Positions 4,595 to 28,944 are shown, numbered from the stretch's first letter. The stretch: 64,000 bases of DNA from an uncultured bacterium (GCA_963729625.1 CAVSOU010000007.1:480001-544000); one strand, 5' to 3'. Notes: generated by a model not told the origin, from the letters alone. A program made the numbers and translations.

Positions 4595-7500
4595 TTAACC
4601 GGCGGCGTGTGCCAGGAGACGAGATCCGTGGCGCAGCGACTCCACGCCTGCGGCAATCGGCGTCTCCGCGATCTTCTCACTGGGCCGGCCAAGATAGTAG
4701 CCCTGAACGCCCTGCACGCCGCGCGGGAGCGTAACCCCTCCCGGGCCGCACTGCCGAACGAAGTCGAGCATCTCCCGTGTCTCGATGCCCTCGGCAATCA
4801 CGTAGGCGCCCATTCCGCTCGCGATGGAGATGATGCCCGCGAGCACGGCCCTCGCGGTCCTGTTCGTGAGTGCTCCATGTACCACGCCGCTATCCACCTT
4901 GATGAAGTCCATCGGAAGCTGGCTCAGCATCTCCAGCCCCGCGTTGCCGGCTCCCGTGTCGTCAAGCGCCAGCCTGAAGCCCGACCCGCGCAATCGCTTG
5001 GCATCACGCACGACCATGGCCAGACGCGCCATCGAGCGCTCCGTCAGCTCGAGCACGACACGCTCCGGTGCCAGCCCCGCTGCGCGCACGGCGCGCTCGA
5101 GGCTATCGTGCGCCAGCAGTCCGTGGTCGAGCGTTTGTGGCGAGATATTGATGAACAACAGCGCGTCGGGCGGAAGCTCCGCGGCCCTGCCCAGGATGGC
5201 GCGCCTGCAGACTGCGTCCAGGTCCTGCGCCCGCCCCATCTTTTCGGCGATATCGAATGCTTCCAGTGGACCGGCCAGGCCGAGCTCCGCGGGAGGCCTG
5301 GCCAGCGCCTCGTACGCAAACACGGTGCCCCGGGCCACGTCCCAGATCGGCTGGAACGCCACGCCCATGATCTGCTCGCTGATCAGTCTGTGTACGATCT
5401 GGCGCTGCGAGGAGGAGCTGATTGACGCACTGTCCTTCACCTCGTCGTACGTCGCGACTCTGTTGCGGCCACGCCGCTTTACGTCCTCTAGAGCCGCGCG
5501 TGCCTGTTGCTGCAAGGTGTCCGAGTCCGTATCTCCCATCGCGAGCGCGGCGACGCCGACACTCACGGTCGCTCCGGCCAGCCTCAGCTCGACTTCCCGG
5601 CGAAGGTGTTCCATGCTGGTGCGCGCCTCCGCGGGCCCGGTATGCGGCAGAATCAGGGCAAACTCGTCGCCGTGCACCCGGAAGGCGCGTGCCTGCCGGC
5701 AGGTATCCCGCAACATGCCGGCGACCTGCGTCAGGATGCGATCGCCGTGCGCCTGACCGCGCCGGTCGTTGATCAGCTTGAACTCGTCGACGTTTATCAG
5801 GGCCAAGGCGACTTGCTCTCCGTGGCGTGCGGCACGCTCGAGCTCTCGCTGCAGCTCTTCGCGGAACCAGCGATGGTTCCCCAGGCCGGTCAGGCCGTCG
5901 GTGAGGGCCGCGCGGGAGAGCTGGCGGTTCACACGCTGCAACGCAGCCATGCTCTCCTTGGTCTGCCTGACATATTGGCGCTGCACCCGGTGCATCATGA
6001 ACGCCGGCAAGGTGAACACGAGGGCGCCCAGATACCCTGTCTCGGCATAGGCGACGCCCAACAGGAGACCCACACCGCAGAGGGCCACGTAGTGCCCGGC
6101 GAGCCAGCGGTACTGGGCCAGCCAGGTTGAGCGTGCCTGCTCCCCCTCGCTCAGACTGAGCGCAGCGGCAACCAATCCCGTGTCGATCAAGAAGTATGCC
6201 GCCGCCGCCATCGCCCCCGGTGCGGCCAGTCCCGGCAAGGACCGCGCTGTGAGCGGGACGCCGGCGACTTGAATCAGCAACGCGGGCGCGAAGCCCGCCA
6301 GCACATGGGTGGCCCAGTTGTACGCCGCCCGGTGCAGGTGCTCGATATGCCGGCCACAACGGAAATGATGGGCGAGTGCGACCGCGGCGCTGACGCACGC
6401 GACGCCCGGAATGCCGCTCAGCAACGCGGCCGCAAACACGAGGCTGACGGACACGGAGACCGTGCCTCGCCCGTAGAGGTCGACCTGCGCCACTTCGGCG
6501 AGCACGGCCAGGGCCATAAAGAGCCAGATTGCCCCCGGCGCTACCTGTACACCTTGCCGCAGGCCGATCGCGGAGACGGCTGCCCCAGCGACGATCACGG
6601 TGGCGACGAACACCCATTGCAGCCAGGAGCGCTCGGCAGGCTCGCCGGGCAGCTGCGGCGGAGCGGGCGGGTTGGAGAGCTCGGGCTCCGCGCTCGCTTC
6701 GCCCGCTACATGGTCCGCCGGCATCCCCCGGCCCAGCGTTGCCGGAAGCGCGTTTGGCGCCTGAAGCGTTTCTGCGGAGGTGCGGCCCGGGTCGTGGGGC
6801 CCTGGCTTCGCTTCAATCCGTCCGCCAGGCACATCGGCCGCACAGACCACACAGTTCCGTCCTCTTGCCTTCGCCGCATAGCACGCCAGGTCGGCAGCTT
6901 GCACGAGGTCCCTGGCGTTCTCGCCGTCTTGCGGATAGCCCGCCACGCCCAGGCTCATGGTCACGCCTATGGGCTCGGCGCTGGTGGCCACCGTGAATCT
7001 CGCCGCCGCCACCGCCTGCCGCAGGCGTTCCGCCAGGGCCTCGGCCTCGGCAGGCTCGCGCTCGGGGGCGACCACGGCAAATTCTTCGCCGCCGAAGCGG
7101 CCGGCCACATCATATTCACTCGCGGTCTCCCGGATGACCCTGCCGATTCCTGCCAGCACCACGTCTCCTGCGAGGTGGCCGTACGTGTTGTTGATGTCGC
7201 GCAGCAAGTCGAGATCGGCCATGATCAGGGCCAGAGGCCTGCCGAAACGGCGGGCTCGTTCCAGTTCGGCGTCGAGCTGCAGGTTGAAGTGTCGCGCGTT
7301 GTCGAGTCCGGTCTTGCCGTCGATGTTTGCTTCATGTTTCAGCTGGGGAACCATCAGCGCTTGATAGATCAACACCAGCGGTGAGAGTGCCGCCACGGTG
7401 TACCAGGGCTCCACCTGCCAGAGCGCGGCAAGCACGAGGCCCATGAGGGCCATGACCAGGTCGAGGGTGACGCTCGTACTCTCCATCACGCCGGATTCGC

Positions 7501-8017
7501 GCCAGGACACTCCCCGCGCCAGGACCAGGGCGAGGCCCAGCAGCAGGTGGTTGAGGATCACATAGGCTATCGCCGTGAGCAGTCCGGCAGCCACGCGCGG
7601 CGGCACAATGCCGCCGGGGACGTCCACGTCGATCTGCAGGTCGAGCCATCCGGCTCCCAGGCCGCCAAGGCTGTACATGGAGAAGTTGAACGGCTGCAGG
7701 TACCAGCTGCGTAGGTGAGGGCTATCGACCCATCGCTCCCTGATCCACTCGATCGCGTGCGGCACGGCGACGAGGAGGATCACCAGGAGCGGCGGCAGGA
7801 GGAGGGCGCCGGCGAAGAAGAAAATGGGGCTGGCATAGAAGAGTATGTGATTCGGCGCTTCGGCCTTGAAGAGCTGCGCGAGGGTGGCGAACACGGCGAG
7901 CGCGGCGAACGTCTCCCAGGTCACCGGCGTCGCGCTGAACGAGTGCAGCGCCGCCGCGGACAGACCAATAGCCAGCAGCATTACGGAGCCCACGTAGGTC
8001 CAGGCCGGCTTCGACAT
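4595..8017 (-). CDS. Membrane-sensor diguanylate cyclase/phosphodiesterase: TM block-GGDEF-TM block-degenerate GGDEF-EAL
   Basis: Hydrophobic N-terminal ~225 aa; DGKTGL, DLDLLRDINNTYGHLAGD, RFGGEEF; second TM block; DGLTGL...RVHGDEF; YEALARP, ELTE, LDDTGAG, IAEGIET. RBS GGAAAGGA. Confidence 0.92.
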   Translation of the reverse strand: MSKPAWTYVGSVMLLAIGLSAAALHSFSATPVTWETFAALAVFATLAQLFKAEAPNHILFYASPIFFFAGALLLPPLLVILLVAVPHAIEWIRERWVDSPHLRSWYLQPFNFSMYSLGGLGAGWLDLQIDVDVPGGIVPPRVAAGLLTAIAYVILNHLLLGLALVLARGVSWRESGVMESTSVTLDLVMALMGLVLAALWQVEPWYTVAALSPLVLIYQALMVPQLKHEANIDGKTGLDNARHFNLQLDAELERARRFGRPLALIMADLDLLRDINNTYGHLAGDVVLAGIGRVIRETASEYDVAGRFGGEEFAVVAPEREPAEAEALAERLRQAVAAARFTVATSAEPIGVTMSLGVAGYPQDGENARDLVQAADLACYAAKARGRNCVVCAADVPGGRIEAKPGPHDPGRTSAETLQAPNALPATLGRGMPADHVAGEASAEPELSNPPAPPQLPGEPAERSWLQWVFVATVIVAGAAVSAIGLRQGVQVAPGAIWLFMALAVLAEVAQVDLYGRGTVSVSVSLVFAAALLSGIPGVACVSAAVALAHHFRCGRHIEHLHRAAYNWATHVLAGFAPALLIQVAGVPLTARSLPGLAAPGAMAAAAYFLIDTGLVAAALSLSEGEQARSTWLAQYRWLAGHYVALCGVGLLLGVAYAETGYLGALVFTLPAFMMHRVQRQYVRQTKESMAALQRVNRQLSRAALTDGLTGLGNHRWFREELQRELERAARHGEQVALALINVDEFKLINDRRGQAHGDRILTQVAGMLRDTCRQARAFRVHGDEFALILPHTGPAEARTSMEHLRREVELRLAGATVSVGVAALAMGDTDSDTLQQQARAALEDVKRRGRNRVATYDEVKDSASISSSSQRQIVHRLISEQIMGVAFQPIWDVARGTVFAYEALARPPAELGLAGPLEAFDIAEKMGRAQDLDAVCRRAILGRAAELPPDALLFINISPQTLDHGLLAHDSLERAVRAAGLAPERVVLELTERSMARLAMVVRDAKRLRGSGFRLALDDTGAGNAGLEMLSQLPMDFIKVDSGVVHGALTNRTARAVLAGIISIASGMGAYVIAEGIETREMLDFVRQCGPGGVTLPRGVQGVQGYYLGRPSEKIAETPIAAGVESLRHGSRLLAHAAG

Positions 8018-8276: not shown

Positions 8277-9857
8277 CTAGCCCCAGTAGTCGCTGCCCCA
8301 GCTTGCTGAACCCCAACTGGCCGAACCCCAGCTGGCTGAACCCCAGCTGGCTGAACCCCAACTGGCCGAACCCCAACTGGCCGAACCCCAACTGGCCGAA
8401 CCCCAACTGGCCGAACCCCAACTGGCCGAACCCCAGCTGGCCGCCGGATTGCCGGTCTGAATCGAGGCTGCCGGGGCCACACCGACGTTGGCGCTTGCCG
8501 TGCTGGGGTTCGCTACAGCCGCCGCCACATTGACCTCACCGGCACCCACCCCGCTGGTCGAGGCCACCGGCGAGGCCGTGGCCGTCAGGCGGTACTTCAC
8601 CTGATTCGGGGTCAAGCCGGGTTGGGCCTGCAGCAGCAGGGCCACCGCCCCGGAGACCATCGGCGCCGCCATCGACGTGCCGGACATGCGGAAGTAGTTA
8701 CTGTTGACGATGTTCGCGGGATGAGCGGTCGCCAGCGTATCGGAGGGACTGGCCAGGACGCTGACGATGTTGACTCCTGGCGCCACCAGATCCGGCTTGT
8801 TCATTAGGGACGTAAGCCCCGCCGTCGTGGAGATCGGGATGGTGCCAAATGAGGAGAACGATGCCAGGGTGTCGTCGCTCTGGTTTACCGTACCCTGGTC
8901 GTTCACCGCGCCCACGGTGATCGCGAAGGGGTCGTTGGCCGGGGCGAACAGCACCCCGGCGTTGGTGTTCCCGTTGTTGCCGGCTGAAACTACCACTACG
9001 ATCCCGGCATTCCAGAGCGTTTCCACCGCGGCATCCAGCGGATCCACCTGGTAGCTGTCGGCCACGGTGCTGTTCAGCGACAGGTTGACCACCCGGATGT
9101 TGCCGGTCGTCCGGTTGTTATACACCCACTGCAGACCGTTGACCACGTCGGACACGGAGGCCATGCCCTGATCGTCACTGATCTTGACGTCGATGAGATT
9201 GGCCTGGGGAGCGACGCCGATATAGGCCCCGGCAGAGTTGGCACCGTTTCCGCCGATGATCCCGGCTACATGGGTGCCATGGCCGTAGGGATCACCGCCG
9301 AAAGTCGTCCTGCTATTGATAATCTTCATGGCGACCATGTGCTCTTCGATAGCCGACGCCATGCCGCTGTCCACCACCGCGACGCCAACTCCCTGCCCCT
9401 GATACTGGGACCAGAGGGAGCCGGCGCCAATGGACTGCGGATAGACGTCATTGAGCGTCGCCGCGTTGCAGCAGCTGTAGCTCGACTTGACCACCGGCGC
9501 GTCCAGCGACACCCAGCGCACGCCGGGCATGGCGGCCAGACGGGGCACCGACCGGGCCGGCAGCCGCACGGCCAGGGCGTGGATGATCGGAAGCCGGCGC
9601 GTCACACGAGCGCCCAGACCGTCCAGCCCCCAGTTGACGCTCTGCCCGGCGTCCCGCAGCTGCACGATCACGCCGACCTGGGCGTCGGGGTGCGCCGCAG
9701 CCAGCTGCAGTAGGGCGGGCTGGGCGCGCAGCGGTGCCGCCGCCTGCACCGGAGAGCGTCCTTGCAAGGGCAGGCAGGCCGCTAGGCCCAGCAGCAGGGC
9801 GACACACAATCTGGGCAGGCTAACCGACCGGTTCACTGTTCCATCTCGCGCACTCAA
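8277..9857 (-). CDS. Secreted S8 (subtilisin-family) serine peptidase with C-terminal (ASWGS)x10-DYWG tail
   Basis: Signal peptide (VQA-A) and prodomain. Catalytic motifs VAVVDSG, HGTHVAG, SAGN, GTSMAAP. AGGAGG precedes the TTG start. Confidence 0.95.
   Translation of the reverse strand: MSARDGTVNRSVSLPRLCVALLLGLAACLPLQGRSPVQAAAPLRAQPALLQLAAAHPDAQVGVIVQLRDAGQSVNWGLDGLGARVTRRLPIIHALAVRLPARSVPRLAAMPGVRWVSLDAPVVKSSYSCCNAATLNDVYPQSIGAGSLWSQYQGQGVGVAVVDSGMASAIEEHMVAMKIINSRTTFGGDPYGHGTHVAGIIGGNGANSAGAYIGVAPQANLIDVKISDDQGMASVSDVVNGLQWVYNNRTTGNIRVVNLSLNSTVADSYQVDPLDAAVETLWNAGIVVVVSAGNNGNTNAGVLFAPANDPFAITVGAVNDQGTVNQSDDTLASFSSFGTIPISTTAGLTSLMNKPDLVAPGVNIVSVLASPSDTLATAHPANIVNSNYFRMSGTSMAAPMVSGAVALLLQAQPGLTPNQVKYRLTATASPVASTSGVGAGEVNVAAAVANPSTASANVGVAPAASIQTGNPAASWGSASWGSASWGSASWGSASWGSASWGSASWGSASWGSASWGSASWGSDYWG
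8292..8441 (-). repeat. 15-bp x10 coding tandem repeat (ASWGS)
   Basis: CCCCA recurs every 15 bp from 8296 to 8431. Variation between units is synonymous in the peptidase frame (AGC/AGT, TCG/TCA, GCC/GCA). Confidence 0.97.
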
Positions 9858-10029
9858 TGGGTCCTCCTTTGCGCTCTACACCTGGATTGCGCGTGTGCAG
9901 GACGGCTCCCAGATTCATTTCCCAGGAGATACCATTCCTGCTCCACACGATTGTACTTTGGAGGCAAGGGCTCGAACACCCCTAAACGAGGGGGCACACT
10001 CTTGCTAGCCCGTCTGGGTCGTCGGTTGC

Positions 10030-10705
10030 ATGGCGACGCCGATACGCGCGCGAGCGCGGCCAGCGAGGCGCGACTGGTGAAGCCGCAATCGGCGACGATG
10101 CCGGCCAGTCGACGCGCACCCACGACCTGCCGCACGCGGCGCGCGAGCACGGCAGCCAGGGCGGCTTCTCGGTGCCGGCCGCGCCCGAGCACGTAGGTGA
10201 TCACCTGGCCCGTGCCGGTATCCACGGCCAGGTAGAGGCGATAGCCGCGTAGCCGCCGACTGCGTCCACCCGCCCACCCTTTGAGGAAGCGCGTCAGCTT
10301 GCCCCGGCCCCAGTACGGCAGCTGGTGGGCATCCAGGGCCACCCACACCCGCCCGGAGCGGCTCGTCAGACTGGCCTAGTAGGCGGTTTCGACCGACCGC
10401 CGCACATCGTGGGCGGAGAATGCGCGCACACTCCGCGCCAGCGTGCGCGCACAGGGCAGGCGGCGCAGACCCAGCAGCACCGGCAGTAAGGGTTCCGCCA
10501 GCAGCCGCAAATGAAACGGCCGCCCGCTGCCCCGCCAGGCCAGCACCAACCAGAGCAACGCCAGGCTCAGACTGGAGAGGCCGCGCTTCGTCCGGGCCAA
10601 AAAGCGCTCCAACCCCAGCCCTTGCGCATACACCAAGAGCGCGGGCAGCGGCACGACGTTCGTTGGTCCGCTCGCCGACATCCGGCCGCTTGGTACACTT
10701 GCCAT
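10030..10705 (-). pseudogene. Inactivated DDE transposase fragment (IS4/IS1380-like), in-frame stop and 3' truncation
   Basis: ORFs 10376-10780 and 9854-10348 share a frame and are separated by TAG at 10376-10378. Motifs VALDAHQLPYWG, GYRLYLAVD and IVADCGF resemble the first two catalytic Asp regions; no Glu region follows. Family assignment and 3' limit are approximate. Confidence 0.65.
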
Positions 10706-10879
10706 GAGGGATCGCCTTCCTGGTTCCGGCTTTGATACTACCTTCCAGGATGCGCGATCCCTCCGTATTGCGAGGCTCAACTGTCCAATCTACGCTAGCA
10801 CTTTGGCGCGGCCTATCGCATCGGACGCCAGGCGGATGGGCACCGGCGTTATGACCAGGCCTCAGGCAGTTGGTTGCAT

Positions 10880-11404
10880 TTAGGAGCCCCAGTTGGCGTT
10901 TGCATGCACCGCTTGCGCGACGACGGTCGGAACCACCACCGTGGTGATGGCCTGGCCGCTCAGGCCCGACACCGTCGACGCCTGGTACAGCACGGTTACC
11001 ATATCGGTTGACAGCACCCTCGCCGTCACAGAAACGGCCACGGCCGGGCCGCTCACGCTCGCCGTGGTCACGACGGTGTATGTTCCGGGGCTGCCGTCGG
11101 CTACATAGGTGTACGATTCGTTCGCGCCGGTAAGCAGCTCACCCGTCACGGCGCCACCCTTAGGACCGTGGATAGCGTATGTGACGCACTGCACCTGCGA
11201 GCTTGCCGCCGATATCGTGGCGACGACCTGGATCAGTGTGGTGGACGAGCCGGACGCCGTGGGCGCGGAAACGAGCAGAATCGGGTCACGCCGGCTGGCC
11301 ACGGCGGCGTGCGCGCCCTGGGTCTGCGGGAGGATCCCGCCCACGGTGCCCGCCGCTATCGCCAGACCAGCCAGGATGCGTGTGATGCCTGTCAGCTTTG
11401 TCAC
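10880..11404 (-). CDS. Secreted beta-rich protein (RRDP motif) ending in NANWGS
   Basis: GGAGG then GTG; signal peptide ending AHA-A; Thr/Val/Ser-rich mature domain; clear paralog at 20926-21444. Confidence 0.88.
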   Translation of the reverse strand: MTKLTGITRILAGLAIAAGTVGGILPQTQGAHAAVASRRDPILLVSAPTASGSSTTLIQVVATISAASSQVQCVTYAIHGPKGGAVTGELLTGANESYTYVADGSPGTYTVVTTASVSGPAVAVSVTARVLSTDMVTVLYQASTVSGLSGQAITTVVVPTVVAQAVHANANWGS

Positions 11405-12215
11405 GTATAACCTCCATTACCGCCGCGGCACGAATGCATCCGTCTTGCCTTAACAACCCAGCCCGGGAGCGGCAGGCGGGGGCTAGCTGAATCCCGTCGC
11501 ACGGTGCCGGCCCTCCACGAGAACCCCCCGCCACGCGCGGGTGCCCCGTCCAGGACTGGCGCACGCATGCCGGGCTTCTGCCTGGTCCGGCTTCCAGCCG
11601 GTGTTGCTAAGGCGAGCGGCGGCTCCCACGGCTGCGGCGAGCCCGTGGTCACCACCTCGGCGCAGCCGGCAGGCCGCCCTCCCCGCGGGAAAGGGACGGT
11701 GTCCGTCCCTCGCGCCAAGGCCCCTTCCGCAGCACGCTCCCTGACCCCAGCACCCCGGGTTCCGGTCCGATGCACGATCTCGCACCAGGAGCCGCGGACA
11801 ATACGGTCGCGCAGCGCACTGCTTCGCTAGCGTAAGCCAGTATGGGCTCGGCGCACATCCTCGTTCGAGTAAGGCCGCACCTGGCCTGTTCAGGGGGGGT
11901 AGCTGGAGGCTGCGCCACAGTACCACGCACTCTCACCAGCCGCCGAAACCTTGAGCCATGCTACAAGTGGGCGGTGCGGCGGTGGCGGGCCGGGGTGAAT
12001 GGCGTGAGTGGCACGCCATACGTGCCATTGTGAGCCGTTACTTCCCATAGTACATTGGGCCGTGACAGGCCATGTGCACAGTCATCGCGCTAGCACGGCT
12101 TGCGTGCCCCTTGCGAGGACGCGAAGCCTGGCGACGCTTGGCGTTTTTTGCATGCCGGACGGGCGTTCCAGCCATACGGGATCGGTCGTCGGCAACGAGC
12201 TGGAAGGATTGTGTC

Positions 12216-15200: not shown

Positions 15201-15374
15201 GCCGATGGCACGGGGCATCTACAGCACGCATTCGTGGTGAAGTACGAGCCCTCGCTCCACGCGAGGCACGGGGAGCCCGCTACCAGGGCCTGGATCAGTG
15301 TGGTGGCTACGAGCAAGGATGGTACCGAGACCAAGTCGGCCTGCCTGCGCTTCGCCGTGCTACCCAAGTTCTGA
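12216..15374 (+). CDS. Large secreted adhesin-like protein: GGAI beta-helix repeats, choice-of-anchor Q domain, Thr/Pro/Asp stalk, Ig-like domain
   Basis: GGAAGGA before GTG 12216; AHA signal site; repeated GGAIYN and IANSTLSGNS; LADNGGATQTIALGPGS...DQRG...CDIGAFE; long TDTP/TATP tract; GSVTFKEGKLVLGTASV Ig-like fold. Confidence 0.85.
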   Translation: MSSLARFVSACHLRSSECRSWRPRPAIPLAVLMVVMQTLVPLAATAPQTAHADDTPCVVSSPADDGSIGTLRTIVGLGVCPEITFDTAQMGAATITLTSGPIQIGTGDSSNLQTVAIDGGSGVTIQGDDVDSIFTVTTGGILTLNNLTISGSGDSAICNNGTLNVEGSVLSGNSGLNGGGAIFNDGSLGAVATLTDTAITSNAAPMGGAIYNYGDGGTVTLTIANSTLSGNSTFGGSGGAISDVGGPGGAIYNDGGAGAVTVAIANSTLSGNSANSGGGIYNDGDGGTVSVTIANSTLSGNSALVVRRHRIPIVGAGDGLYNTADGGDASLAVHSSILADGATNECAGDSSITDDGYDLALGTTDGNGCALDSGDEDVSTDDPSFSGGEPTNGELADNGGATQTIALGPGSIAIGNGDCQAYTDSTSEDVYAAVTTDQRGAGYPRKDPCDIGAFEAAGDAVTATDTPTATGTATLTDTYTPSDTATLTEPPSDTPTDTATDTATTIDTSTPSDTATDTATVTEPASDTPTAADTSTNTYTPSDTPTGTATATDTSTPSDTPADTATVTELPSDTSTASNTPAPTNTASDTPTVIGTAGYTPAATDTPSNTATDTYTASATPSNTPTVTNTQTDTPTSTYSPTAMPTDTHPPADTSTGTDTASVTAVATGTASSTPVPTDTATDTPADTSTASDTPTPTDTASGTPSATHAPTSTVTGTPTDTATSTPTATATSTRTEMAVDPPVNLPTSAPYVLSSPTATGAAVTSSTATPADTGSALPQFTSTAMPTATGSSASADAATAVPPVPTPAGHASALATNGTMPATFQGGPAMAAVLSGSTQIALRVASDAVARGQTLTLNASLESYGGSLTGSVTFKEGKLVLGTASVHDGVAFLTVTMQAVGPHHIVAVYDGPHGLVVSTTPLSITVGRAPSALSVWNQKHTVVGGRKNACQALMSAGIPSQSGCEAVFSTWLPGARVTDTLSYADGTRQTYTGTADGTGHLQHAFVVKYEPSLHARHGEPATRAWISVVATSKDGTETKSACLRFAVLPKF
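12885..13121 (+). repeat. Three identical 27-bp internal repeats (ANSTLSGNS) in the adhesin
   Basis: GCCAACAGCACGCTGAGCGGCAACAGC at 12885, 13008 and 13095. Confidence 0.9.
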
Positions 15375-20832: not shown

Positions 20833-20895
20833 GCCAACTGGGGCTCCGCCAACTGGGGCTCGGTAAATTGGGGTAGCGACTACTGAGGGAACTAA
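20833..20895 (+). pseudogene. Remnant of a second WGS-repeat tail (ANWGS ANWGS VNWGS DY*GN*)
   Basis: Matches the S8 tail (xxWGS)n-DYWG; the TGA at 20884-20886 sits where a Trp TGG is expected. No intact peptidase ORF lies upstream. Confidence 0.75.
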
Positions 20896-20925
20896 CCCCG
20901 GATCTCGATGAAAGGGAATGCATGT

Positions 20926-21444
20926 ATGAAGAAGACAATCTCGGGCCTCGTCCGCGGCACGGCATGTGCGGTAATCGTGGCAAGTGGCCTGGCGGGGTTG
21001 TGGCAGCACACGCCCGGCGCCCATGCCGCCGTGGCCAGCCGGCGTGACCCCATTCTGTTGATTTCCACGCCTACGGCGTCTGGTGCCACGCTGACTCTGG
21101 TTCAGGTCGTGGCCTCCATCTCCGCGAACAGCACGCAGGTGAAAGGTGTCAGCTTCGCCATCCACGGTCCAGTCGGTAGCTCGCTGACGAAAGAACTCTT
21201 GACCGGCGCGGGCGAAACTTACACGTACACGGCGGACCGCGTGGACACCTCCTACTCGACCGTGACCACCGTTACCGTGAGTGGGGCGGCCGTGCCGGTG
21301 ACCGTGACCTCCAGTGTCCTGGCAACCGATATGCAGACGGTGCTGTACCAGTCGACTGCCGTGGCTGGCATGAGTGGCAAGGGTATCACCACGACGGTAT
21401 GCCCGGTCGCCCTGGCCAATACCAATGCCGGCTGGGGGTCGTAG
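20926..21444 (+). CDS. Secreted beta-rich protein (RRDP motif) ending in NAGWGS
   Basis: Paralog of 10880-11404: GAHAAVASRRDPILL identical; AIHGP, ELLTGA and TDMxTVLYQ shared; signal peptide; AAAGGG before ATG 20926. Confidence 0.88.
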   Translation: MKKTISGLVRGTACAVIVASGLAGLWQHTPGAHAAVASRRDPILLISTPTASGATLTLVQVVASISANSTQVKGVSFAIHGPVGSSLTKELLTGAGETYTYTADRVDTSYSTVTTVTVSGAAVPVTVTSSVLATDMQTVLYQSTAVAGMSGKGITTTVCPVALANTNAGWGS

Positions 21445-21504
21445 GCAGCCCTCACAGCGGCCGTGCAATAGCAGGTAGTGAAGGTAATGAACGGAGAAAC
21501 AATC

Positions 21505-21687
21505 GTGAGTGGACAGAGGAAGAATCGATCGTTGCCGGTGCTCTGGCGCCGGATCGCCGTGTTGGCCCTGGTAATTCTTGGCACAGGCCTCTTCATCAGC
21601 CAGCCGGCACATGGCCTGGGCGGCACGAATACGGCAGCATGTGCGACATGTCACGTCGACAAGCCGTCCGCCGGCTGGGGGTCGTAG
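21505..21687 (+). CDS. Small secreted peptide precursor (~60 aa), predicted mature LGGTNTAACATCHVDKPSAGWGS
   Basis: GGAG before GTG 21505; basic n-region, hydrophobic h-region and AHG cleavage site; C-terminal AGWGS identical to the upstream gene; contains CxxCH. Confidence 0.72.
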   Translation: MSGQRKNRSLPVLWRRIAVLALVILGTGLFISQPAHGLGGTNTAACATCHVDKPSAGWGS

Positions 21688-21959
21688 GGGCCACAGCGAG
21701 CAGCTGCAATGGTTGGGTGCGCGGCTCCCGGCCGAAGCTGCGCTCGTGTACTGGACAGGCAACGCTCGGGGTGCGGCCTAGGCCGCACCCCGAGCGTTTG
21801 GGCTCGTGGTCAGACCGGCCGGCCGTGGCGCATCCGCTCTGGCCAGGGCCCGCGCAAATCCTGAACGCCTGGCAGATGGCTCGCCGACATCCTGTGAGCA
21901 CATGGGCCACCGGTACCGGATACTTCCGGGGCGTTTCGCACTCGAGGGTAGTAGTTGCT

Positions 21960-22030: not shown

Positions 22031-22181
22031 GCGCCACACCGCGCGGCTGCGCCGGTTGGGGGAGCGACTGCCGGTCGCAGCAGTGCTAGTGTACTGAATA
22101 GGAAATGCTCGGATCGCGGTGTACGCCGCGTCCCAGCCATGAGTTCTCCCGGGTGTTCGGAACGAGGTCGGACGAGCAGCC

Positions 22182-24989
22182 ATGTCACTACGTGCCCGGG
22201 CCTATGTCGGCAGCGTGCTTGGCGCCAGTGTCGCGCTGAGCGTGCTCGCGCTGCTTCGCTTCGCCCCAACGCTCGCGCTGTGTGAGACCTTTGCCGCCTT
22301 GACCGTCCTGGCCAGCGTGGCCCAGCTGTTCAAGGCCGAAGCCCCCAACCACGTGCTGCTCTACGCCAGCCCCATCTTCTTCTTTGCCGGTGTCCTGCTG
22401 CTGCCGCCCTTCCTGTTCGTTCTGTTGGTGGCTGTTCCGCACATGGTCGAGTGGGGTGTCGAGCGATTGCGGCACAGTCCTCACCTCCGTGCCTGGTACT
22501 TGCAGCCGTTCAATATCGCAATGAACTGGATATCCGGGCTGAGCGCGTACTGGCTGTACGCGCAGGTCAGTGGTGAGAACACCGCCAGCGTGCTTTCGAC
22601 CACCGTGCTCGCGGGTCTGGCCGCCGTTGCCTGCTTCGTCGTCCTCAACCACATCCTGCTGGGGCTGGCCCTCGCCCTCGCGCGTGGCGTGAGCTGGCGC
22701 GAGTCGGGCATGTTCGAGCTGTGGAGCCTGCTCACCGACCTGGTGCTGGCCTGCATGGGCCTGGTCGTGGCGGAACTCTGGCGGATACATCCCGCGTTCG
22801 TCGTGCCGGCCCTCGCTCCCCTGGTATTGATGTACCAGTCCCTGATGATCCCACGGTTGAAGCAGCAAGCCGAGATCGACGCCAAGACCGGTCTGTTCAA
22901 CTCCGGGCATTTCAAGACCATGTTTGGCGCCGAGCTGGCCCGGGCCACGCGGTTTGATCGGCCGCTCACGGTGATCATGGCCGACCTGGACCTGCTGCGT
23001 AACGTCAACAATCAGTACGGCCATCTCGCCGGTGACGTTGTTCTCGCCGGGATCGGCAAAATCATCCGTCAGACGATGCGCGAGTACGATATCAGCGGCC
23101 GATTCGGCGGTGAAGAATTCGTCCTGGTTGCCCCTGAAGCAGGTCTTACAACGGGCGAAAGCCTGGCAGAGCGACTGCGGCAGGCGGTAGCCGATGCTCG
23201 TTTTCCGATCGGGGCAGACGCCGCGCCGATCGGCGTGACGATGAGCCTGGGAGTAGCGTGCCACCCCCTGGACGGGAACACCGCGGAAACGTTGATCTAT
23301 GCAGCGGATATGGCGGTCCTCGAAGCCAAGACCAGGGGACGCAACTGCGTGGTGCGCGCCGCGGACCTGTCATGGGACCGCCGCGTCGCTCAGCCGGCCC
23401 CGCCTGAGCCCGATGCGGCCTCCGCCGGCGCCGTGACGCCGCAGCGATCGTCGCTGCAAGCAGAGGGGCCTCAGATACCGCCCGTCAGGCTCCTTGCGCC
23501 TGAAAGCCTGCGGAGCGCCTCTCCTCCCGAGACAGCCGAGCCAGCGTATCCAGGGACAAAGGCTCTGCCCCTGCGCGCAGGCTGGCTCGGCCAGGGCGCG
23601 GAACGCGATGGCGCGGATCGCGATCTGCCGGTGAGCAGCCAACGCGCGACGCAGGCGCCACCGCGTCTCGCGCGAATGCTTCCCCAGCCTGGGGTGGCCG
23701 TGGCCACGATGCTGCTGGCCATTGGCACAGTGCTTGCGGGGGTGCGGTACGAGGACATCTCGCTGGGATTGCAGCCCTTCGGCGAGATCCTCACGGCCGT
23801 ACTCCTGGCCGCCACACTCGTTCTGACTTACCGGTATCCGATTCATATCCGCCTGCACCTCAAGGTGCAGGTGTCTACGATGGTCTACTACCTGGTGGCC
23901 GCGCTGCTGCCCCTATCGTTGGGCATGGGTGTTGCGGCGCTGGGCACCCTGCTGGGCGAAGTATCCGTGCGCCGGCAGCGCAAGCTCTACCCGAGCGATA
24001 TTGCCACGGCCGTCGGCCGATGGACGGTGTTGGTGTTTCTGGGCACCTTGGTAGCACATGTGCCCGCACAAGGAGATGTCGCCCTGGCGCCGTTGGCGGC
24101 CTGCGCGGTGGTGCTGGCAATGGGCGACCTCCTCACGTTGCCGCTGATCATCGCATCGATAACCGGTGAGCGCCCGCTTCGCGTGCTGCGCGCGCTGGCC
24201 ACGGACACCGCCGTGCCAGATGGCATCCAGTACTTGCTTGGCTTCCTGGCGATTCTCGCATCCCAGCGCGCGGCGTGGGTACTGGTTCTCTGTGCGGTGC
24301 CTGCCGTTCTCGTTTACCAGGCCACGAAAGCCATGCATGAGGTGCAGGACTCCACGCACCATCTCCTGGAGGGCATGGCCGACACGGTAGACCTCCGCGA
24401 TTCCTACACCGGGGGTCATTCGCGGCGCGTGGCGGACTTCTGCCGCCGCATCCTGGATGAACTGGATCTCATGGGCCCCGATGCCGAGATGATCGTCTCG
24501 GCCGCGCGCGTGCATGATATCGGCAAAATCGCCATTCCCGACGCGATCCTCATGAAGCCGGGGCCCCTGACGGGCGAGGAGCGCGCCCAGATGCAGACGC
24601 ACGCGGAGCGTGGCGCCGAGGTGCTGGCCCGCCATCGAGATTTCCGGCATGGCGTGGCTGTTGTGCTGCACCACCACGAGGCGTGGGACGGCAGTGGGTA
24701 TCCGCGCGGGCTCAAAGGGCTCGCAATCCCGTTCGGAGCACGGTTGATGGCCGTAGCGGACGCCTTCGACGCTATGACAAGCGACCGGCCGTATCGCGGC
24801 GCGATGTCAGCAGCAAAGGCGGCAAGTATCTTGCGGCAGGGACGGGGTCTGCAGTGGGATCCTCAAATGGTCGATGCGCTGTTGCGCTGCATCGATGTTC
24901 AAACCGTGCTGGCCGAGCTCGCGGTGCTGCCGAGCCCCGACTGCACGACAGCCCAACGCCCCTCCAGCACGTCCGCGGCAGGCGCTTGA
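22182..24989 (+). CDS. Membrane-sensor diguanylate cyclase/phosphodiesterase: TM block-GGDEF-TM block-HD-GYP
   Basis: N-terminal ~400 aa closely paralogous to 4595-8017 (QLFKAEAPNH, YASPIFFFAG, WYLQPFN, ARGVSWRESG); REYD I-site, RFGGEEF; YTGGHS, VHDIGK, HHEAWDGSGYP, DAFDAMTSDRPY. Confidence 0.93.
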   Translation: MSLRARAYVGSVLGASVALSVLALLRFAPTLALCETFAALTVLASVAQLFKAEAPNHVLLYASPIFFFAGVLLLPPFLFVLLVAVPHMVEWGVERLRHSPHLRAWYLQPFNIAMNWISGLSAYWLYAQVSGENTASVLSTTVLAGLAAVACFVVLNHILLGLALALARGVSWRESGMFELWSLLTDLVLACMGLVVAELWRIHPAFVVPALAPLVLMYQSLMIPRLKQQAEIDAKTGLFNSGHFKTMFGAELARATRFDRPLTVIMADLDLLRNVNNQYGHLAGDVVLAGIGKIIRQTMREYDISGRFGGEEFVLVAPEAGLTTGESLAERLRQAVADARFPIGADAAPIGVTMSLGVACHPLDGNTAETLIYAADMAVLEAKTRGRNCVVRAADLSWDRRVAQPAPPEPDAASAGAVTPQRSSLQAEGPQIPPVRLLAPESLRSASPPETAEPAYPGTKALPLRAGWLGQGAERDGADRDLPVSSQRATQAPPRLARMLPQPGVAVATMLLAIGTVLAGVRYEDISLGLQPFGEILTAVLLAATLVLTYRYPIHIRLHLKVQVSTMVYYLVAALLPLSLGMGVAALGTLLGEVSVRRQRKLYPSDIATAVGRWTVLVFLGTLVAHVPAQGDVALAPLAACAVVLAMGDLLTLPLIIASITGERPLRVLRALATDTAVPDGIQYLLGFLAILASQRAAWVLVLCAVPAVLVYQATKAMHEVQDSTHHLLEGMADTVDLRDSYTGGHSRRVADFCRRILDELDLMGPDAEMIVSAARVHDIGKIAIPDAILMKPGPLTGEERAQMQTHAERGAEVLARHRDFRHGVAVVLHHHEAWDGSGYPRGLKGLAIPFGARLMAVADAFDAMTSDRPYRGAMSAAKAASILRQGRGLQWDPQMVDALLRCIDVQTVLAELAVLPSPDCTTAQRPSSTSAAGA

Positions 24990-25151: not shown

Positions 25152-27188
25152 ATGGCGACTGAATCGCCCTTCCGCGAGCGTAGCCAACCTCAAGCCGGCG
25201 GCACGTCCGTGCCCGCAAACGGGCGCGACGCGGCGCGACGCACCGCGCGAAGCCGCCGTGCCGAATCGTTCCGCGCTGAACCGGCGACGGACACGTCGCG
25301 CGTCGCCAGCAGCAAGCTTGGCGAGCTGCTGGTCGCGAACGGGAGTGCCACGAGCGACGGCGTGGAAGCGGGCCTGGACGAGCAGCGTCGCACCGGCGTG
25401 CGCCTCGGCGAGGCACTGGTGAGCCTCGGCTACGCCCGTGCCGATCGGGTGGCCCAGGCACTTGCCGCGCAATACGGTCTCGAGGCGCTCAGTTCACTCG
25501 AGTCATCCAGCGAGCGACCCACGTGCTGCACCACCGACGACACCTGGTACCAAACGCACCGCCTCGTTCCACTGTCTGTCAGCAATGGCATATTGCGCGT
25601 GGCTACCGCGGATCCGACGAATACCGCCTTGCTGGCTGAGGCCGCGCGCATTGCCGGGATGCCAGTTCAACCGATCGTGGCCACGAACCGCGACATCGAG
25701 CGGGCGCTTAACTCGCTGTTCGGTCTGCCGGACCTGTATAAGAGCGCCAACGACCTGCTTGAGCGCATGCCGGAAGACAGCGCGTATCAGGTGCTCAGCC
25801 GCGCCCAGAAGACCGCCATCCTCGGCGCACTCGTCGTCTGTCTGGCGGCGCTCCTGCTGGATACAACGGCCACCCTGATCGTGCTCATTACCCTGTTGAC
25901 CCTTCTGCACCTGGCTTCCTGTTTCTACAAGCTGTACCTGCTCAGCCAGGGCGTGAAAGCGGGGGAGACGATCTATTCCGCACCCGAAACCGCGCATCTG
26001 GACGATCGCACGCTTCCTGTCTACACGATCCTCGTCCCGCTGTACCGTGAAGCGGTCATGTTGCCGCAATTGCTCCAGGCACTGCAAGCCCTCGACTGGC
26101 CGAAAGCAAAGCTGGATGTGCGCTTGCTCCTGGAGCAAGATGACGTCCCCACCATCGACGCGGCATTCGCCGCGCGATTACCGGCCTATTTCACGTTTGT
26201 CATCGTGCCGCCCGGATTGCCGCGGGGCAAGCCCAAAGCATGCAATTTTGGCCTTGCCCACGCAAGGGGCAAGTACGTCGTGATTTTCGACGCGGAGGAT
26301 ATTCCGGAGCCCGACCAGCTCAAGAAGGTTTACGCGGCGTTCCAGCAGGCGCCGGCAGACCTCGGCTGCATTCAGTGCCATTTGAACTTCTACAACGCCG
26401 ACCAGAATCTGCTCACCCGGTGGTTCACGGCCGAGTATTCGGTGTGGTTCGACATCCTCCTGCCCAGTGTGCAGGCCGCGCGGGTGCCGGTGCCTCTCGG
26501 AGGAACATCGAACCATTTCAAACGCGATGTGCTCGAGCAGCTCGGGGCGTGGGATCCCTATAACGTGACCGAGGACGCCGACCTGGGAGTGCGCCTCTTC
26601 AAGCGAGGTTACCGCACCGCCGTCTTGACGTCGACGACCTACGAAGAGGCGAATCCGCGCGTCGGCAACTGGCTGCGGCAGCGTTCGCGCTGGATCAAGG
26701 GCTATCTTCAGACCTGGCTGGTGCACATGCGTCACCCGATTGTTCTGTGGCGGGAGCTTGGCCCGCGCGGTTTCCTGGGCATTCAGTTTCTCCTTGGCGG
26801 TACTGTGCTGGTGCTTCTGCTCAATCCACTCTTCTGGGCCCTGGTGCCTCTATGGTTCACCACGCGATCGGCGCTGCTGCTGCAGCTCTTCCCTGGTCCC
26901 GTCTTTTACCTGGGCGCCGCCGCCCTCTACGTCGGCAATATCCTGTTCATTTATCTTGCCATGGCGGGGTCGCTCGGACGCGGATACCATTCCCTCACCA
27001 AGTACGCGCTCCTCAGCCCGGTCTATTGGGTGCTCATGAGCATCGCAGCCTGGAAAGGCGCCCTGCAGCTGCTGAGCCGGCCACACTACTGGGAGAAGAC
27101 GAAGCATGGCCTTGCGCGCTACGCGGTGGTGCCAGCGGCCCTTCCGCCAGACGCGGCAGTGATACACAAGAAGTCGGGGACCCCGTGA
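25152..27188 (+). CDS. MshEN (c-di-GMP-binding) domain + processive GT2 glycosyltransferase
   Basis: KLGELLVANG...LDEQ followed by RLGEALVSLG...ALAAQ; GT2 motifs LVPLYRE, FDAED, TEDADLG, QRSRW; C-terminal TMs and WEKTKHG. Confidence 0.9.
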   Translation: MATESPFRERSQPQAGGTSVPANGRDAARRTARSRRAESFRAEPATDTSRVASSKLGELLVANGSATSDGVEAGLDEQRRTGVRLGEALVSLGYARADRVAQALAAQYGLEALSSLESSSERPTCCTTDDTWYQTHRLVPLSVSNGILRVATADPTNTALLAEAARIAGMPVQPIVATNRDIERALNSLFGLPDLYKSANDLLERMPEDSAYQVLSRAQKTAILGALVVCLAALLLDTTATLIVLITLLTLLHLASCFYKLYLLSQGVKAGETIYSAPETAHLDDRTLPVYTILVPLYREAVMLPQLLQALQALDWPKAKLDVRLLLEQDDVPTIDAAFAARLPAYFTFVIVPPGLPRGKPKACNFGLAHARGKYVVIFDAEDIPEPDQLKKVYAAFQQAPADLGCIQCHLNFYNADQNLLTRWFTAEYSVWFDILLPSVQAARVPVPLGGTSNHFKRDVLEQLGAWDPYNVTEDADLGVRLFKRGYRTAVLTSTTYEEANPRVGNWLRQRSRWIKGYLQTWLVHMRHPIVLWRELGPRGFLGIQFLLGGTVLVLLLNPLFWALVPLWFTTRSALLLQLFPGPVFYLGAAALYVGNILFIYLAMAGSLGRGYHSLTKYALLSPVYWVLMSIAAWKGALQLLSRPHYWEKTKHGLARYAVVPAALPPDAAVIHKKSGTP

Positions 27189-27303: not shown

Positions 27304-28944
27304 TTGGCGTTCGTGTTCTACCTCTTGGTCGCCCTCTATCTTCGCCGGCTAGACCTGTACATGCAAGACGCGGTTGCTCGCACGGCCCAGGCCTTCTCCG
27401 TCCTCTACTCGCGCGACCCGCACCTTGGCGCGCTGGGCTTCGTGTGGAACCCGCTGCCGGCCTTGCTGCAACTGCCCTTAATCACCGTTCTGCATACGGT
27501 TCGCCTCGACCCGTTGCTGGCGAGCAATATACTGACCGCGGGCTGCGGTGCGGCGGCCCTGTGCGTGTTGAACGCTTTCATGCTCCGCGCAGGACTCTCC
27601 TCCCGCCTGCGTTTGCTGCTCCTCGCTCTCTATGGCCTCAATCCAGTCATCGTGCTGTATAGCGCCAACGGGGAGAGCGAGGCGCTCTTCATCCTGCTGA
27701 TCGTGAGTCTGGTCACGAATTTCGTCGAATGGGCGGATACACGGTCCCTGCGCGCCCTGCTGTCCATGACGCTCATCTCCGCGCTGGCAGTGCAGGCCCG
27801 CTACGAATCGCTCGCACTGATCGCAGCGGTCGCAGCGGCGATCATCCTCACCTGTATGCCCCTCACCCGGCACATCGGCGTCTCGGCTGCCGCCCGGCGG
27901 ATGGAGAGCTACTCGATTGCGTACCTGGCCGCCCCAGTTTATTCCTGCGCGATCTGGGTCTTCTTCAACTGGATGATCGAGGGGGACGCCCTGTTCTTCC
28001 TGCGCAGCGCGTACAGCAATATCGCGGATACCGCTCAGTTCAGGTCGAATGCTGGAAGCTACCTCCATGGAGTGGTCTACTCCTGGCCGGGCGCATTCCG
28101 GTACGGCGCCCGCGAAATGCTCTGCATCTTCCCCGCGTTTGCCGTGATCCTGCTGCTCGCGTTGTTCCTGGCCATGGCACGGCGTGAGCGAGGGATTTCG
28201 TTGTTCGGTGTTCTACTGATTTCCCTGGCAATCCCTGGGTTCGAGATCGCGATGATCGAGCGGGGCGCTTCTTACGGCTGGCTCCGTTTCTTCATATATG
28301 TGATTCCTTTCTCGTTCCTGCTGCTCACCGTGCTCTGCCGGACAGTTCCCAGCTTGATTGGGGGGCGAGGCGCCAAACTCGTCTGGGTGCTGATTGTTTT
28401 CGCGCTGCTCAGCTCGGACGTTGCGAGCTGGATCGCCATGAATACGCCCTCCCTCGGTCGCGAAGAACGATACGTCACCTGCAAGATCTTGCACCCAGGC
28501 CGGATATCCAGCCACGACACGATTCGCGACCCCAAGGCGATCGATGCCGTGGTCCAATCTCTGCCGCCGGGCCGCGTCCTGCTCGATACCTACCAGGGTT
28601 TCGCCATCCCACTCGTTTCTCCCAATCCGACACGCTACGTGATAACCTCGGACCTTGACTTCTCGGCAATACTGCACCATCCCGCGGGTATGGTGCGCTA
28701 TATCCTCGTCCCTTACCCCGACGCGGTTGGCCTTGACGATAGTATCAACCAGCAGTATCCCAATCTGTGGGAACGCGGCAGCCCCTGGACGCGCTTGCTC
28801 CGCGACTTTCCGCAGACCTTCAATCATTGGAGACTCTACGCGGTGGTCGGCGTCCCTCCCACGGGGGCGCGCGACCGGCAACCTGCCCGTACGCAACCCC
28901 TGCCCGCCAGGAATACAACACCAGAACAGTGTGAGAATGGGTAG
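27304..28944 (+). CDS. Multi-TM GT-C fold (PMT/GT39-like) glycosyltransferase-like membrane protein
   Basis: About 10 hydrophobic segments; DAVAR, RDPHLGALGFVWNPLP, NGESEA and RYE motifs; C-terminal soluble domain. Start codon uncertain. Confidence 0.7.
   Translation: MAFVFYLLVALYLRRLDLYMQDAVARTAQAFSVLYSRDPHLGALGFVWNPLPALLQLPLITVLHTVRLDPLLASNILTAGCGAAALCVLNAFMLRAGLSSRLRLLLLALYGLNPVIVLYSANGESEALFILLIVSLVTNFVEWADTRSLRALLSMTLISALAVQARYESLALIAAVAAAIILTCMPLTRHIGVSAAARRMESYSIAYLAAPVYSCAIWVFFNWMIEGDALFFLRSAYSNIADTAQFRSNAGSYLHGVVYSWPGAFRYGAREMLCIFPAFAVILLLALFLAMARRERGISLFGVLLISLAIPGFEIAMIERGASYGWLRFFIYVIPFSFLLLTVLCRTVPSLIGGRGAKLVWVLIVFALLSSDVASWIAMNTPSLGREERYVTCKILHPGRISSHDTIRDPKAIDAVVQSLPPGRVLLDTYQGFAIPLVSPNPTRYVITSDLDFSAILHHPAGMVRYILVPYPDAVGLDDSINQQYPNLWERGSPWTRLLRDFPQTFNHWRLYAVVGVPPTGARDRQPARTQPLPARNTTPEQCENG

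Follow-up and report, generated by a model that had tools for sequence, protein, structure and literature searches.

A 64,000-nucleotide stretch of DNA from an uncultured bacterium (G000:C7:480001-544000, G+C ∼65%; hereafter the window) was analysed by a six-frame scan for reading frames ending in Trp-Gly-Ser (WGS), by translation and by Pfam searches. It was found that the window carries a conserved Chloroflexota module, triplicated in the genome, in which an S8 subtilase with a C-terminal tail of tandem Trp pentapeptides is paired with an enzyme of cyclic diguanylate (c-di-GMP) turnover that carries a remotely MASE9-like membrane block. The linkage between Trp-motif C-termini and this family of membrane-GGDEF proteins is real. 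We propose, with slightly less than even confidence, that the Trp pentapeptide is a cue which is read by the membrane block and supplied by the protease.

The module in the source genome

Two paralogous membrane proteins of c-di-GMP turnover were found in the window. DgcA (4595..8017, minus strand, 1140 amino acids) consists of membrane block 1, a GGDEF domain, membrane block 2, a degenerate second GGDEF domain (HGDEF) and an EAL domain, and DgcB (22182..24989, plus strand, 935 amino acids) of membrane block 1, a GGDEF domain in which an RxxD site is present, membrane block 2 and an HD-GYP domain. Their GGDEF domains matched PF00990 with 257 and 130 bits (E 7.2e-77 and 1.1e-37, respectively), the EAL domain of DgcA scored 147.9 bits (E 4e-43) and the HD_5 match of DgcB 127.6 bits (E 5.2e-37). 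Inspection of the translations showed GGEEF in the first GGDEF domain of both proteins, the EAL motif in DgcA, and the HD and GYP motifs in DgcB; the motifs of the first GGDEF, HD-GYP and EAL domains look catalytically intact.

The sequence-only reading of this DNA had named four intact secreted products ending in WGS, and all four were found in the translations, each motif directly followed by the stop codon unless a cap is mentioned. At the DgcA locus, an S8 subtilase gene (8277..9857, minus strand) encodes a signal-peptide-like N-terminus, a possible I9-like propeptide, an intact D/H/S triad and a C-terminal repeat tail of (ASWGS)x10 plus DYWG (8280..8441, minus strand). It is accompanied by the gene of tagged secreted protein A (10880..11404, minus strand, 174 amino acids), which ends in NANWGS. 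At the DgcB locus lie the gene of tagged secreted protein B (20908..21444, plus strand, 178 amino acids, ending in NAGWGS) and a gene for a 69-residue precursor (21478..21687, plus strand) with an N-terminal hydrophobic segment and the terminus SAGWGS. Proteins A and B had been listed as two beta-rich proteins, which is that reading's own label; they are paralogues of one family. Two decayed copies had also been claimed. One is clear, a remnant of an S8 tail with the units ANWGS-ANWGS-VNWGS-DY before a stop codon (20839..20877, plus strand); the other, a possible decayed AGWGS in a 30-codon frame (22057..22065, plus strand), was seen in the six-frame scan alone and is weak.

The WGS products lie upstream of, and co-oriented with, the two membrane proteins, as had been described, and a third locus elsewhere in the genome is arranged alike. 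By tblastn, exactly three genes of the genome encode a membrane block of the DgcA/DgcB type. The third, DgcC on contig C11, has the order block-GGDEF-block-HD-GYP, and it is preceded, in the same orientation, by an S8 gene ending in (VNWGS)n-DYWGS and a protein gene ending in NVSWGS. WGS-ended proteins are thus found upstream at all three block genes.

The motif had also been reported absent from the housekeeping half of the window, and no frame ending in WGS was detected between 32 and 64 kb. Across the whole genome, such termini are uncommon, contrary to one of the conditions that the sequence-only reading had named as refuting: only 11 of the 63,295 stop-to-stop frames of ≥50 amino acids end in WGS. 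Four of these 11 lie on the same strand as, and ≤3.5 kb upstream of, a block-1 gene (binomial p ∼3e-10); a fifth is a duplicated copy, and the remaining six look off-frame by eye.

The S8 gene of the DgcC locus (G000:C11:61510-63015, equal to L001:9511-11016) matches the window S8 in three frames, with frameshifts in its N-terminal half, and the Asp and His motifs are absent from its long ORF (open reading frame). It appears to be either a frameshifted pseudogene or an assembly error. The remnant at 20839-20877 has 82% DNA identity to the 3' end of this gene, and no other S8 remnant was found at the DgcB locus.

Conservation of the pair in other genomes

Loci outside the source genome were collected in three scans, species-wide, in 401 Chloroflexota genomes and in metagenomes. 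A tailed or tagged ORF was found upstream and co-oriented in 21 of the 25 informative loci, which bears out the expectation that Trp-motif termini would accompany the sensor family elsewhere. In 20 of these 21 loci, the units (x-x-W-[G/D/S]-[S/T/N], 5-14 in tandem) are carried by an S8 subtilase.

The species-wide scan, in which each prokaryote species was represented by one genome and two conserved peptide words served as the query, returned six loci, all in Chloroflexota metagenome-assembled genomes (MAGs). Five of the six have, immediately upstream and in the same orientation, an ORF of S8 size with (VNWGS)n or (VSWGS)n at its end. By profile search of the 401 Chloroflexota genomes, the block was found in 19, of these 16 at E <1e-15, and 11 of the 14 informative loci have a tailed or tagged upstream ORF. 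Ten of these ORFs are S8 genes with VSWDS, TVSWD, LNWDS, ASWGS or SSWST units, and the eleventh, from genome G190 of the same genus, encodes a homologue of the 174- and 178-residue proteins that ends in NAVWGS. The tallies for this set include three genomes flagged as unpublished (G145, G173 and G226), and no claim depends on these three. The metagenome scan, with a 3-row block alignment as the query, gave seven loci, five of them with sufficient upstream DNA, and a tailed S8 was present in all five (units ANWST, ASWST, AANWS, ASWGS or VNWGS); two of the loci, L112 and L113, share one tail and may be a single organism.

The co-occurrence was also examined without regard to position, by a DNA pattern for four period-5 Trp units in the same 401 genomes. 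The pattern matched 16 genomes, of which 12 from eight families contain the block too and four do not, and seven genomes have the block only (Fisher's exact p 3e-15, related genomes not being independent). The four genomes with the pattern only were found to hold unrelated repeats (WGTAR, WGTLP, WGSLM and one non-repeat). The counts are lower bounds, as the pattern misses Ser at unit position 4 or Asn at position 5; tailed S8s of G210 and G298 were missed in this way.

The distance from the S8 stop codon to the next gene can be as small as 3-30 nucleotides (L043, L044 and L047). The conservation, tight spacing and shared orientation of the pair suggest that the protease tail and the membrane enzyme are directly linked in function. 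The architecture of the sensor side varies. In L008 and L040, block 2 with HD-GYP forms a separate gene between the S8 gene and the block1-GGDEF gene, and in L043 and L045 a stand-alone block lies between the S8 gene and the sensor gene. In L047 (7670-8467 and 10005-13226), the block1-GGDEF protein ends in HisKA-HATPase and an ORF similar to OmpR-type regulators precedes the tailed S8; since the block protein ends in a kinase module there, the block may be able to feed a two-component output too. In L008, of an Ardenticatenaceae genome, a second S8 with a PQQ-type beta-propeller (4876-7917) sits between the VSWGS-tailed S8 and the sensor genes, and it carries another Trp-rich tail of YAWGG repeats, ending in RWVDDW.

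Downstream, the conservation ends. The genes that follow differ among the listed loci, including the same-genus one (no systematic survey was made), and because of this the glycosyltransferases are placed outside the conserved module. Their coupling to the system, as the sequence-only reading had it, was not upheld. Those downstream of DgcB are plausible local c-di-GMP targets, as judged from an MshEN domain. The gene at 25152..27188 (plus strand) encodes an MshEN-GT2 (family 2) glycosyltransferase, a candidate local c-di-GMP effector (Pfam MshEN 6e-15, Glyco_trans_2_3 2.4e-29; NCBIfam c-di-GMP motif 3.4e-13).

The subtilase and its repeat tail

The window S8 matched PF00082 with 155.8 bits against a cut-off of 21.8, and all tested orthologues match as well. 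In an alignment of 15 sequences, the catalytic residues D163, H193 and S395 are invariant. In an AlphaFold 2 (AF2) model made from the 15 orthologues, the propeptide was modelled, the catalytic domain less well; the propeptide region (residues 45-123) forms a beta-alpha-beta-beta-alpha-beta unit with a predicted local distance difference test (pLDDT) score of 71-91. Pfam I9 did not match the window S8 and reached E 0.11 in one orthologue.

All aligned tails share the register x-x-W-x-x, in which the Trp is invariant. V, A, L or T predominate at position 1 and N, S or L at position 2; G, D or S occupies position 4, and S, T or N position 5. Before the core comes a first unit of less regular sequence and after it a terminal cap, often DYWG-x (7 of 16 tails). 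The longest array among the fetched proteins has 14 units. Within a protein, the core units have the same amino acids and different DNA: the nine VSWDT units are written in nine DNA versions, the seven VSWDS units in seven and the ten ASWGS units in five. Among these core units, the proportion of non-synonymous differences (pN) was 0 and that of synonymous differences (pS) 0.6-1.3, and the non-synonymous differences in the tails all came from edge units. With pN = 0 in the presence of synonymous differences, all five positions of the core unit are held by purifying selection.

A tail profile was searched against 5.8 billion proteins and found 613 at E ≤0.001. The best 120 of these 613 are nearly all S8 proteins ('serine protease AprX' or 'S8 family peptidase'), and the organisms named among them are all Chloroflexota MAGs. 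Six listed matches had no S8 Pfam hit; four of them were fetched and were C-terminal S8 pieces, one with an F5/8 type C segment.

The AF2 model showed no secondary structure in tail residues 469-526 (pLDDT ∼25, a low confidence that is not in itself proof of disorder), and the tail looks like a flexible string and not a beta-helix. The quadrilateral beta-helix of pentapeptide-repeat proteins (PF00805 and PF01469) was considered and had no support from AF2, which gave no strands in residues 469-526 with the 15-row alignment. PF01469, whose model describes an X-N-X-G-X composition, matched the VNWGS tail of the C11 S8 (34.2 bits, cut-off 26.4) and many database homologues, and did not match the ASWGS tail of the window S8. 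A C-terminal sorting signal of the LPXTG, PEP-CTERM, GlyGly-CTERM or PGF-CTERM kind, in which a hydrophobic helix and a basic cluster come after the motif, was rejected: the stop codon follows right after the motif or after at most a DYWG-x cap, and there is no hydrophobic stretch. None of the NCBIfam sorting-signal models matched.

The Trp repeats could also be a retention tag that anchors the proteins non-covalently to an envelope or matrix polymer, with the c-di-GMP enzyme co-expressed because it governs the matrix. In favour of this, the motif closes the sequences of secreted proteins from three families, and the tail is predicted to be flexible. Tandem repeats that are short and aromatic, when found at the C-terminal end of a secreted enzyme, are characteristic of wall-binding modules, and a c-di-GMP-binding GT2 does lie downstream of DgcB. 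We consider this explanation unlikely. The sole conserved neighbour is the membrane c-di-GMP enzyme, with no polysaccharide genes; one unit of five residues on a small protein would be a very weak anchor; the fixation of all five positions goes beyond what aromatic spacing needs; and no known wall-binding family in Pfam or NCBIfam was matched. If the tail were an anchor, it would still be a new and very short surface-retention motif.

The tail might instead be the multi-core precursor of a modified peptide, in the manner of ribosomally synthesised and post-translationally modified peptides (RiPPs), with no signalling to the neighbouring enzyme. S8 proteases mature cyanobactins, a weak similarity to NCBIfam PatA/PatG was seen (42 bits against a cut-off of 421), and tandem identical cores fused to enzymes occur in fungal, plant and borosin precursors. 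This seems very improbable, since the conserved partner is a signalling protein, and ORF lists and Pfam showed no radical SAM enzyme, prenyltransferase or cyclodehydratase among the conserved neighbours.

Transfer of the unit to other secreted proteins

The 174- and 178-residue proteins of the window, the tagged protein of C11 and that of G190 belong to one family (33-58% identity; A and B are 58% identical) with a signal-peptide-like start. At their C-termini N, W, G and S are invariant, and Asn precedes the unit in all. For protein A no Pfam or NCBIfam family was found, and for the tagged secreted protein searched in the ESM Atlas no usable match. Homologues exist in the same class, and none of ten examined lies beside a block. 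All ten stop shortly past the last conserved strand, without the extension of ∼15 residues and without WGS, so that the extension ending in N-x-x-W-G-S is found in 4/4 module-adjacent members vs 0/10 elsewhere. The tag was thus added to the module-resident copies. Single-unit proteins were seen in this genus only and none was found outside; the motif's ancestral carrier is the subtilase.

These results bear on a further possibility, that of co-regulation, in which the two genes share an operon and their products make no contact. The block would then sense something else, for example the lipid or envelope state, and the tail would be a pro-region or substrate mimic of the protease; C-terminal pro-regions do occur in other subtilases. 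Such an account leaves the same terminal unit on module-adjacent non-proteases unexplained, and G190, which has no S8 orthologue, retains a tagged-protein gene immediately upstream of the sensor gene. In its favour are the predicted cytoplasmic position of the block's conserved face (see below) and the lack so far of any ligand for MASE9. On balance it is judged improbable.

The 69-residue precursor matched nothing in Pfam or NCBIfam save a chance-level NCBIfam hit to the N-terminus of NrfH (E 0.039). A CATCH sequence (CxxCH) was noted eight residues before its terminal AGWGS; a haem or metal site on a mature peptide of ∼23 residues would be unusual. A second copy of the gene was found on contig C10, upstream of another membrane GGDEF-EAL protein. 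It was rejected as an independent case, as it lies in a duplicated segment, 91% identical, that also holds the 3' end of a tagged-protein gene. The last 40 codons of the two copies differ by three synonymous and no non-synonymous changes, and the predicted mature part of the protein shows conservation.

Between the 69-residue gene and DgcB lies a perfect, terminator-like palindrome of 38 bp (21761..21798, no strand assigned), detected as a self-match on the opposite strand. In the C10 duplicate (G000:C10 ∼421350-421392) the hairpin is retained with a different sequence, as would be expected of a working terminator. A 263-nucleotide contig from a metatranscriptomic library (run X3) matched 21068-21330, inside the protein B gene, with 6 differences, most of the window being uncovered in this run. 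It hints weakly at expression in a close relative and is no proof of transcription; DNA carry-over is possible.

The membrane block

Membrane block 1 of DgcA (amino acids 1-230; 7328..8017, minus strand) is 58% identical to that of DgcB. It matched no Pfam or NCBIfam model, Pfam even at E up to 1. A block 1 profile was searched against 1.84 billion representatives and found 660 proteins at E ≤0.001, 102 of them at E ≤1e-30; the block is N-terminal in all 150 matches listed of the 660. Block 1 and block 2 were aligned by hhalign over 232 columns with 96% probability (E 3.6e-9). The sequence-only reading had pointed to Pfam MASE models as a way to place these blocks, and they answered in part: block 1 gave no match, and block 2 of two homologues scored 16.2 and 13.9 bits with MASE9 (PF20972), below the gathering score of 24.3 bits. 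In the ESM Atlas, block 1 was nearest to MASE9-bearing clusters (score 0.95), and in 25 of 30 matches 22-46% of the members carry MASE9. From these comparisons, block 1 appears remotely MASE9-like. MASE9 is described as having eight segments with a short intramembrane pair and poorly conserved outer segments, and as being fused to HD-GYP, GGDEF or EAL; its describers, who give no known ligand, propose that ligands are bound inside the membrane (10.1101/2021.11.05.467447).

An AF2 model of block 1 with its GGDEF domain reached pLDDT 91 and a predicted template modelling score (pTM) of 0.74. Eight helical segments were predicted in the block, including a short pair (3-25, 31-49, 63-73, 76-97, 100-129, 139-168, 180-202 and 204-231). 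An exhaustive structural search with the model found solved GGDEF domains at Z 20-27. It also placed model residues 29-205 on the S-component 5kbw_A of an energy-coupling factor (ECF) transporter, with Z 15.4 and a root-mean-square deviation of 2.4 over 158 residues. Further S-component matches were 3p5n_B (Z 14.0), 4m5c_A (13.8), 4hzu_S (13.2) and 4dve_A (12.6). The identity in these matches is 10-13%, and their Z scores are at or just above the range of unrelated helical bundles; the modelled fold of block 1 thus resembles the small-ligand-binding ECF S-components at the edge of what chance would give for helical bundles. Foldseek against the PDB returned GGDEF matches alone and was uninformative on the membrane block.

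The conserved loops of the block, KAEAPNH, RERW-SPHLR-W and ARGVSWRES, together average ∼9.3 Lys and Arg vs ∼0.9 on the opposite side. The loops equivalent to L1, L3 and L5 of S-components have 1.5-3.5 each, and the opposite loops 0-0.5. By the positive-inside rule, together with the basic N-terminus and a last helix that runs into the GGDEF domain, the conserved loops are predicted to be cytoplasmic. A match in charge between unit position 4 (G/D) and the outer loop 129-140 was considered and rejected: the WDS clade tends to Arg/His in this loop, which follows phylogeny, and L040 misfits.

A membrane protein of this build might also act from the inside out, as LapD does on LapG, holding or releasing the protease through its Trp tail according to the c-di-GMP level. 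LapG and LapD are a precedent for a protease gene adjoining that of a membrane GGDEF/EAL-type protein, disordered Trp repeats serve as multivalent hooks in other systems, and the RxxD site of DgcB and the degenerate second GGDEF domain of DgcA could bind c-di-GMP. We hold this to be quite improbable, given the tiny outer surface of the block, the intact-looking motifs of the first GGDEF, HD-GYP and EAL domains, and the lack of both a LapD-like periplasmic domain and a LapG-type protease.

A proposed peptide cue for a c-di-GMP enzyme

The proposal that the block reads a peptide cue draws on three features of the unit. Its register closes exactly at the C-terminus in nine proteins, and Asn or Ser is invariant before each unit; with identical, selected units, this fits a unit whose function is that of a peptide instead of a folded domain. 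The peptide-cue reading is further favoured because the unit has moved onto unrelated secreted proteins only inside the module. The conserved linkage and the predicted disorder of the tail count in its favour too, as do the traits of the block, which is N-terminal and remotely MASE9-like and whose modelled fold recalls that of the small-ligand-binding S-components.

From this pattern we infer cleavage, peptide binding, a place of binding and a sign of response, in the following form. The protease would carry 5-14 copies of the cue and probably free each by a cut in front of it, [S/N] | [A/V]-x-W-G-S, and it would also free single units from the other tagged secreted proteins. Block 1 would drive the GGDEF cyclase and block 2 the HD-GYP or EAL phosphodiesterase, and the freed peptide would shift the balance between c-di-GMP synthesis and breakdown. 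The peptide might reach a site inside the membrane by way of the outer leaflet; or, once imported as Phr peptides are, it might bind the conserved face on the cytoplasmic side. A more specific version, in which the subtilase is a polyprotein precursor of 5-14 Trp-pentapeptide autoinducers, frees these and the single units of other tagged proteins, and an S-component-like MASE9-type domain binds the peptide and sets c-di-GMP without a kinase, is built by analogy with alpha-factor and Kex2 and is held to be doubtful.

Several observations weigh against the proposal. Prediction puts the conserved loops of the block on the cytoplasmic side, so that an S-component-like pocket would face inward, and the outer loops are short (4-12 residues) and variable. 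In four of the 25 informative loci (L005, L039, L046 and L048), no period-5 Trp ORF was found in the 15-19 kb fetched, and in two of their genomes, G342 and G210, a tailed S8 is present elsewhere, unlinked to the block. Within a module, position 2 can differ between the S8 unit and the tag (ASWGS vs ANWGS; VNWGS vs VSWGS). Most S8 tails close with a cap (DYWG-x) and not with a free unit. In the window's genus the S8 gene itself is being lost, as a remnant at DgcB, a frameshifted gene at C11 and the absence of an orthologue in G190 indicate, and the action of the protease is therefore not needed at every module. The decay of S8 with the tagged proteins kept suggests that a terminal unit on a protein may suffice, or that one protease serves all modules.

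Relation to known systems

In the Phr-Rap systems of Bacillus, a secreted precursor supplies the signal, its C-terminal pentapeptide, which the extracellular S8 proteases subtilisin, Epr and Vpr set free. The C-terminal pentapeptide register is shared, and re-import would apply here as well if the cytoplasmic face binds. Here, however, the candidate receptor is a membrane MASE9-like block on c-di-GMP enzymes instead of a TPR protein in the cytoplasm, the protease with its 5-14 units is itself the main precursor, and no conserved adjacent Opp system is present. When the RRNPP family was considered, no cytoplasmic TPR receptor of the Rap, NprR, PlcR or PrgX type was found by the precursors, whose neighbours are membrane GGDEF proteins. 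Yeast alpha-factor with Kex2 and Ste2, and fungal Kex2 precursors in general, combine tandem identical units, a processing protease of the S8 family and a polytopic receptor. This is an analogy only: the units here lack dibasic spacers and form part of the protease, the host is a bacterium and c-di-GMP would be the output.

Like AgrC and ComD, the block would be a multi-pass sensor with very short outer loops that reads a small secreted peptide; unlike them, it is joined to GGDEF and HD-GYP or EAL domains and not to a histidine kinase, there is no relation in sequence or fold, and no AgrB-like or ABC-type partner is present. With LapD-LapG the module shares a protease gene beside that of a membrane c-di-GMP-domain protein, and differs in protease class, in the absence of a periplasmic output domain and in its intact-looking catalytic motifs. 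The ECF S-components (RibU, BioY and the NikM/CbiM type) superimpose on model residues 29-205 in five entries, whereas the block has extra helices at both ends and the loops equivalent to L1, L3 and L5 are predicted to be cytoplasmic, the opposite orientation. With MASE9 it would have in common the eight helical segments, a short pair among them, that are predicted by its model, together with poorly conserved outer segments and the fusion to c-di-GMP domains; it differs in that block 1 has no Pfam match and in its S8 gene partner, which is new, no ligand or gene partner being proposed for MASE9 in its description (10.1101/2021.11.05.467447).

No description of the module was found in the literature searched on the repeat motif, on MASE9 and S-components, on Chloroflexi subtilisins and c-di-GMP, or on peptide pheromones and diguanylate cyclases, and NCBIfam has no model for it. 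The parts are of known kinds (S8, GGDEF/HD-GYP/EAL and a MASE9-like block); what appears to be new is their combination, along with the tandem Trp pentapeptide borne by the protease.

MASE-type blocks rank with the most frequent sensor parts in enzymes of c-di-GMP turnover, and for hardly any of them is the ligand known. For one of them, the module offers a candidate ligand that can be synthesised, the Trp pentapeptide, and a genetic partner. At least eight Chloroflexota families among the 401 sampled genomes carry it, and it occurs in hundreds of metagenomic protein clusters. If the proposal were true, peptide communication would lead straight into c-di-GMP; in the more specific, doubtful version, MASE9 would gain its first ligand class and c-di-GMP signalling its first peptide receptor. 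The precursor design, many copies of a signal fused to their own protease, would be one undescribed in bacteria in the literature searched, and cell-cell signalling would be opened to study in a phylum of filamentous, often uncultured bacteria.

Genes around the module loci

Pfam bore out the S8, GGDEF, EAL, HD-GYP and MshEN assignments; a PilZ protein is encoded at 32405..33265 (minus strand). At the DgcA locus, the tagged protein A gene is split from the S8 gene by an insertion-sequence remnant (9854..10780, minus strand) composed of a partial DDE transposase (Pfam DDE_Tnp_1 3.8e-7) and an ORF of 134 amino acids; at the C11 locus the corresponding genes adjoin, with no such remnant between them. 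Downstream of the MshEN-GT2 gene, a multi-pass membrane protein (27304..28944, plus strand) with no Pfam match is weakly like Agl23 and putative glycosyltransferases (NCBIfam E 0.005-0.018, far under the cut-offs) and belongs to the local context.

Beside the DgcA locus, two STAND-type NTPases were found, one with NB-ARC/NACHT and TPR (3-2603, plus strand) and one with HTH and NACHT/AAA (2911-4473, minus strand); neither is conserved along with the module. In the interval from the DgcA locus to the DgcB locus, 12072-15374 (plus strand) encodes a secreted protein of 1100 amino acids with Gly/Asn-rich repeats, a Thr/Pro/Asp linker (TDTPT...) and Big_3_5; the ORFs with VSVAVSV repeats antisense to this linker are artefacts. 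LacI-type sugar-binding-like sensor folds recur near module loci. In the window, a periplasmic-binding-protein fold of the LacI type is fused to PAS-GGDEF-EAL at 16614-20180 (minus strand) and to HisKA-HATPase at 29063-31705 (plus strand), and in another genome such a fold is fused to STAS directly downstream of the module (L003:11231-13348).

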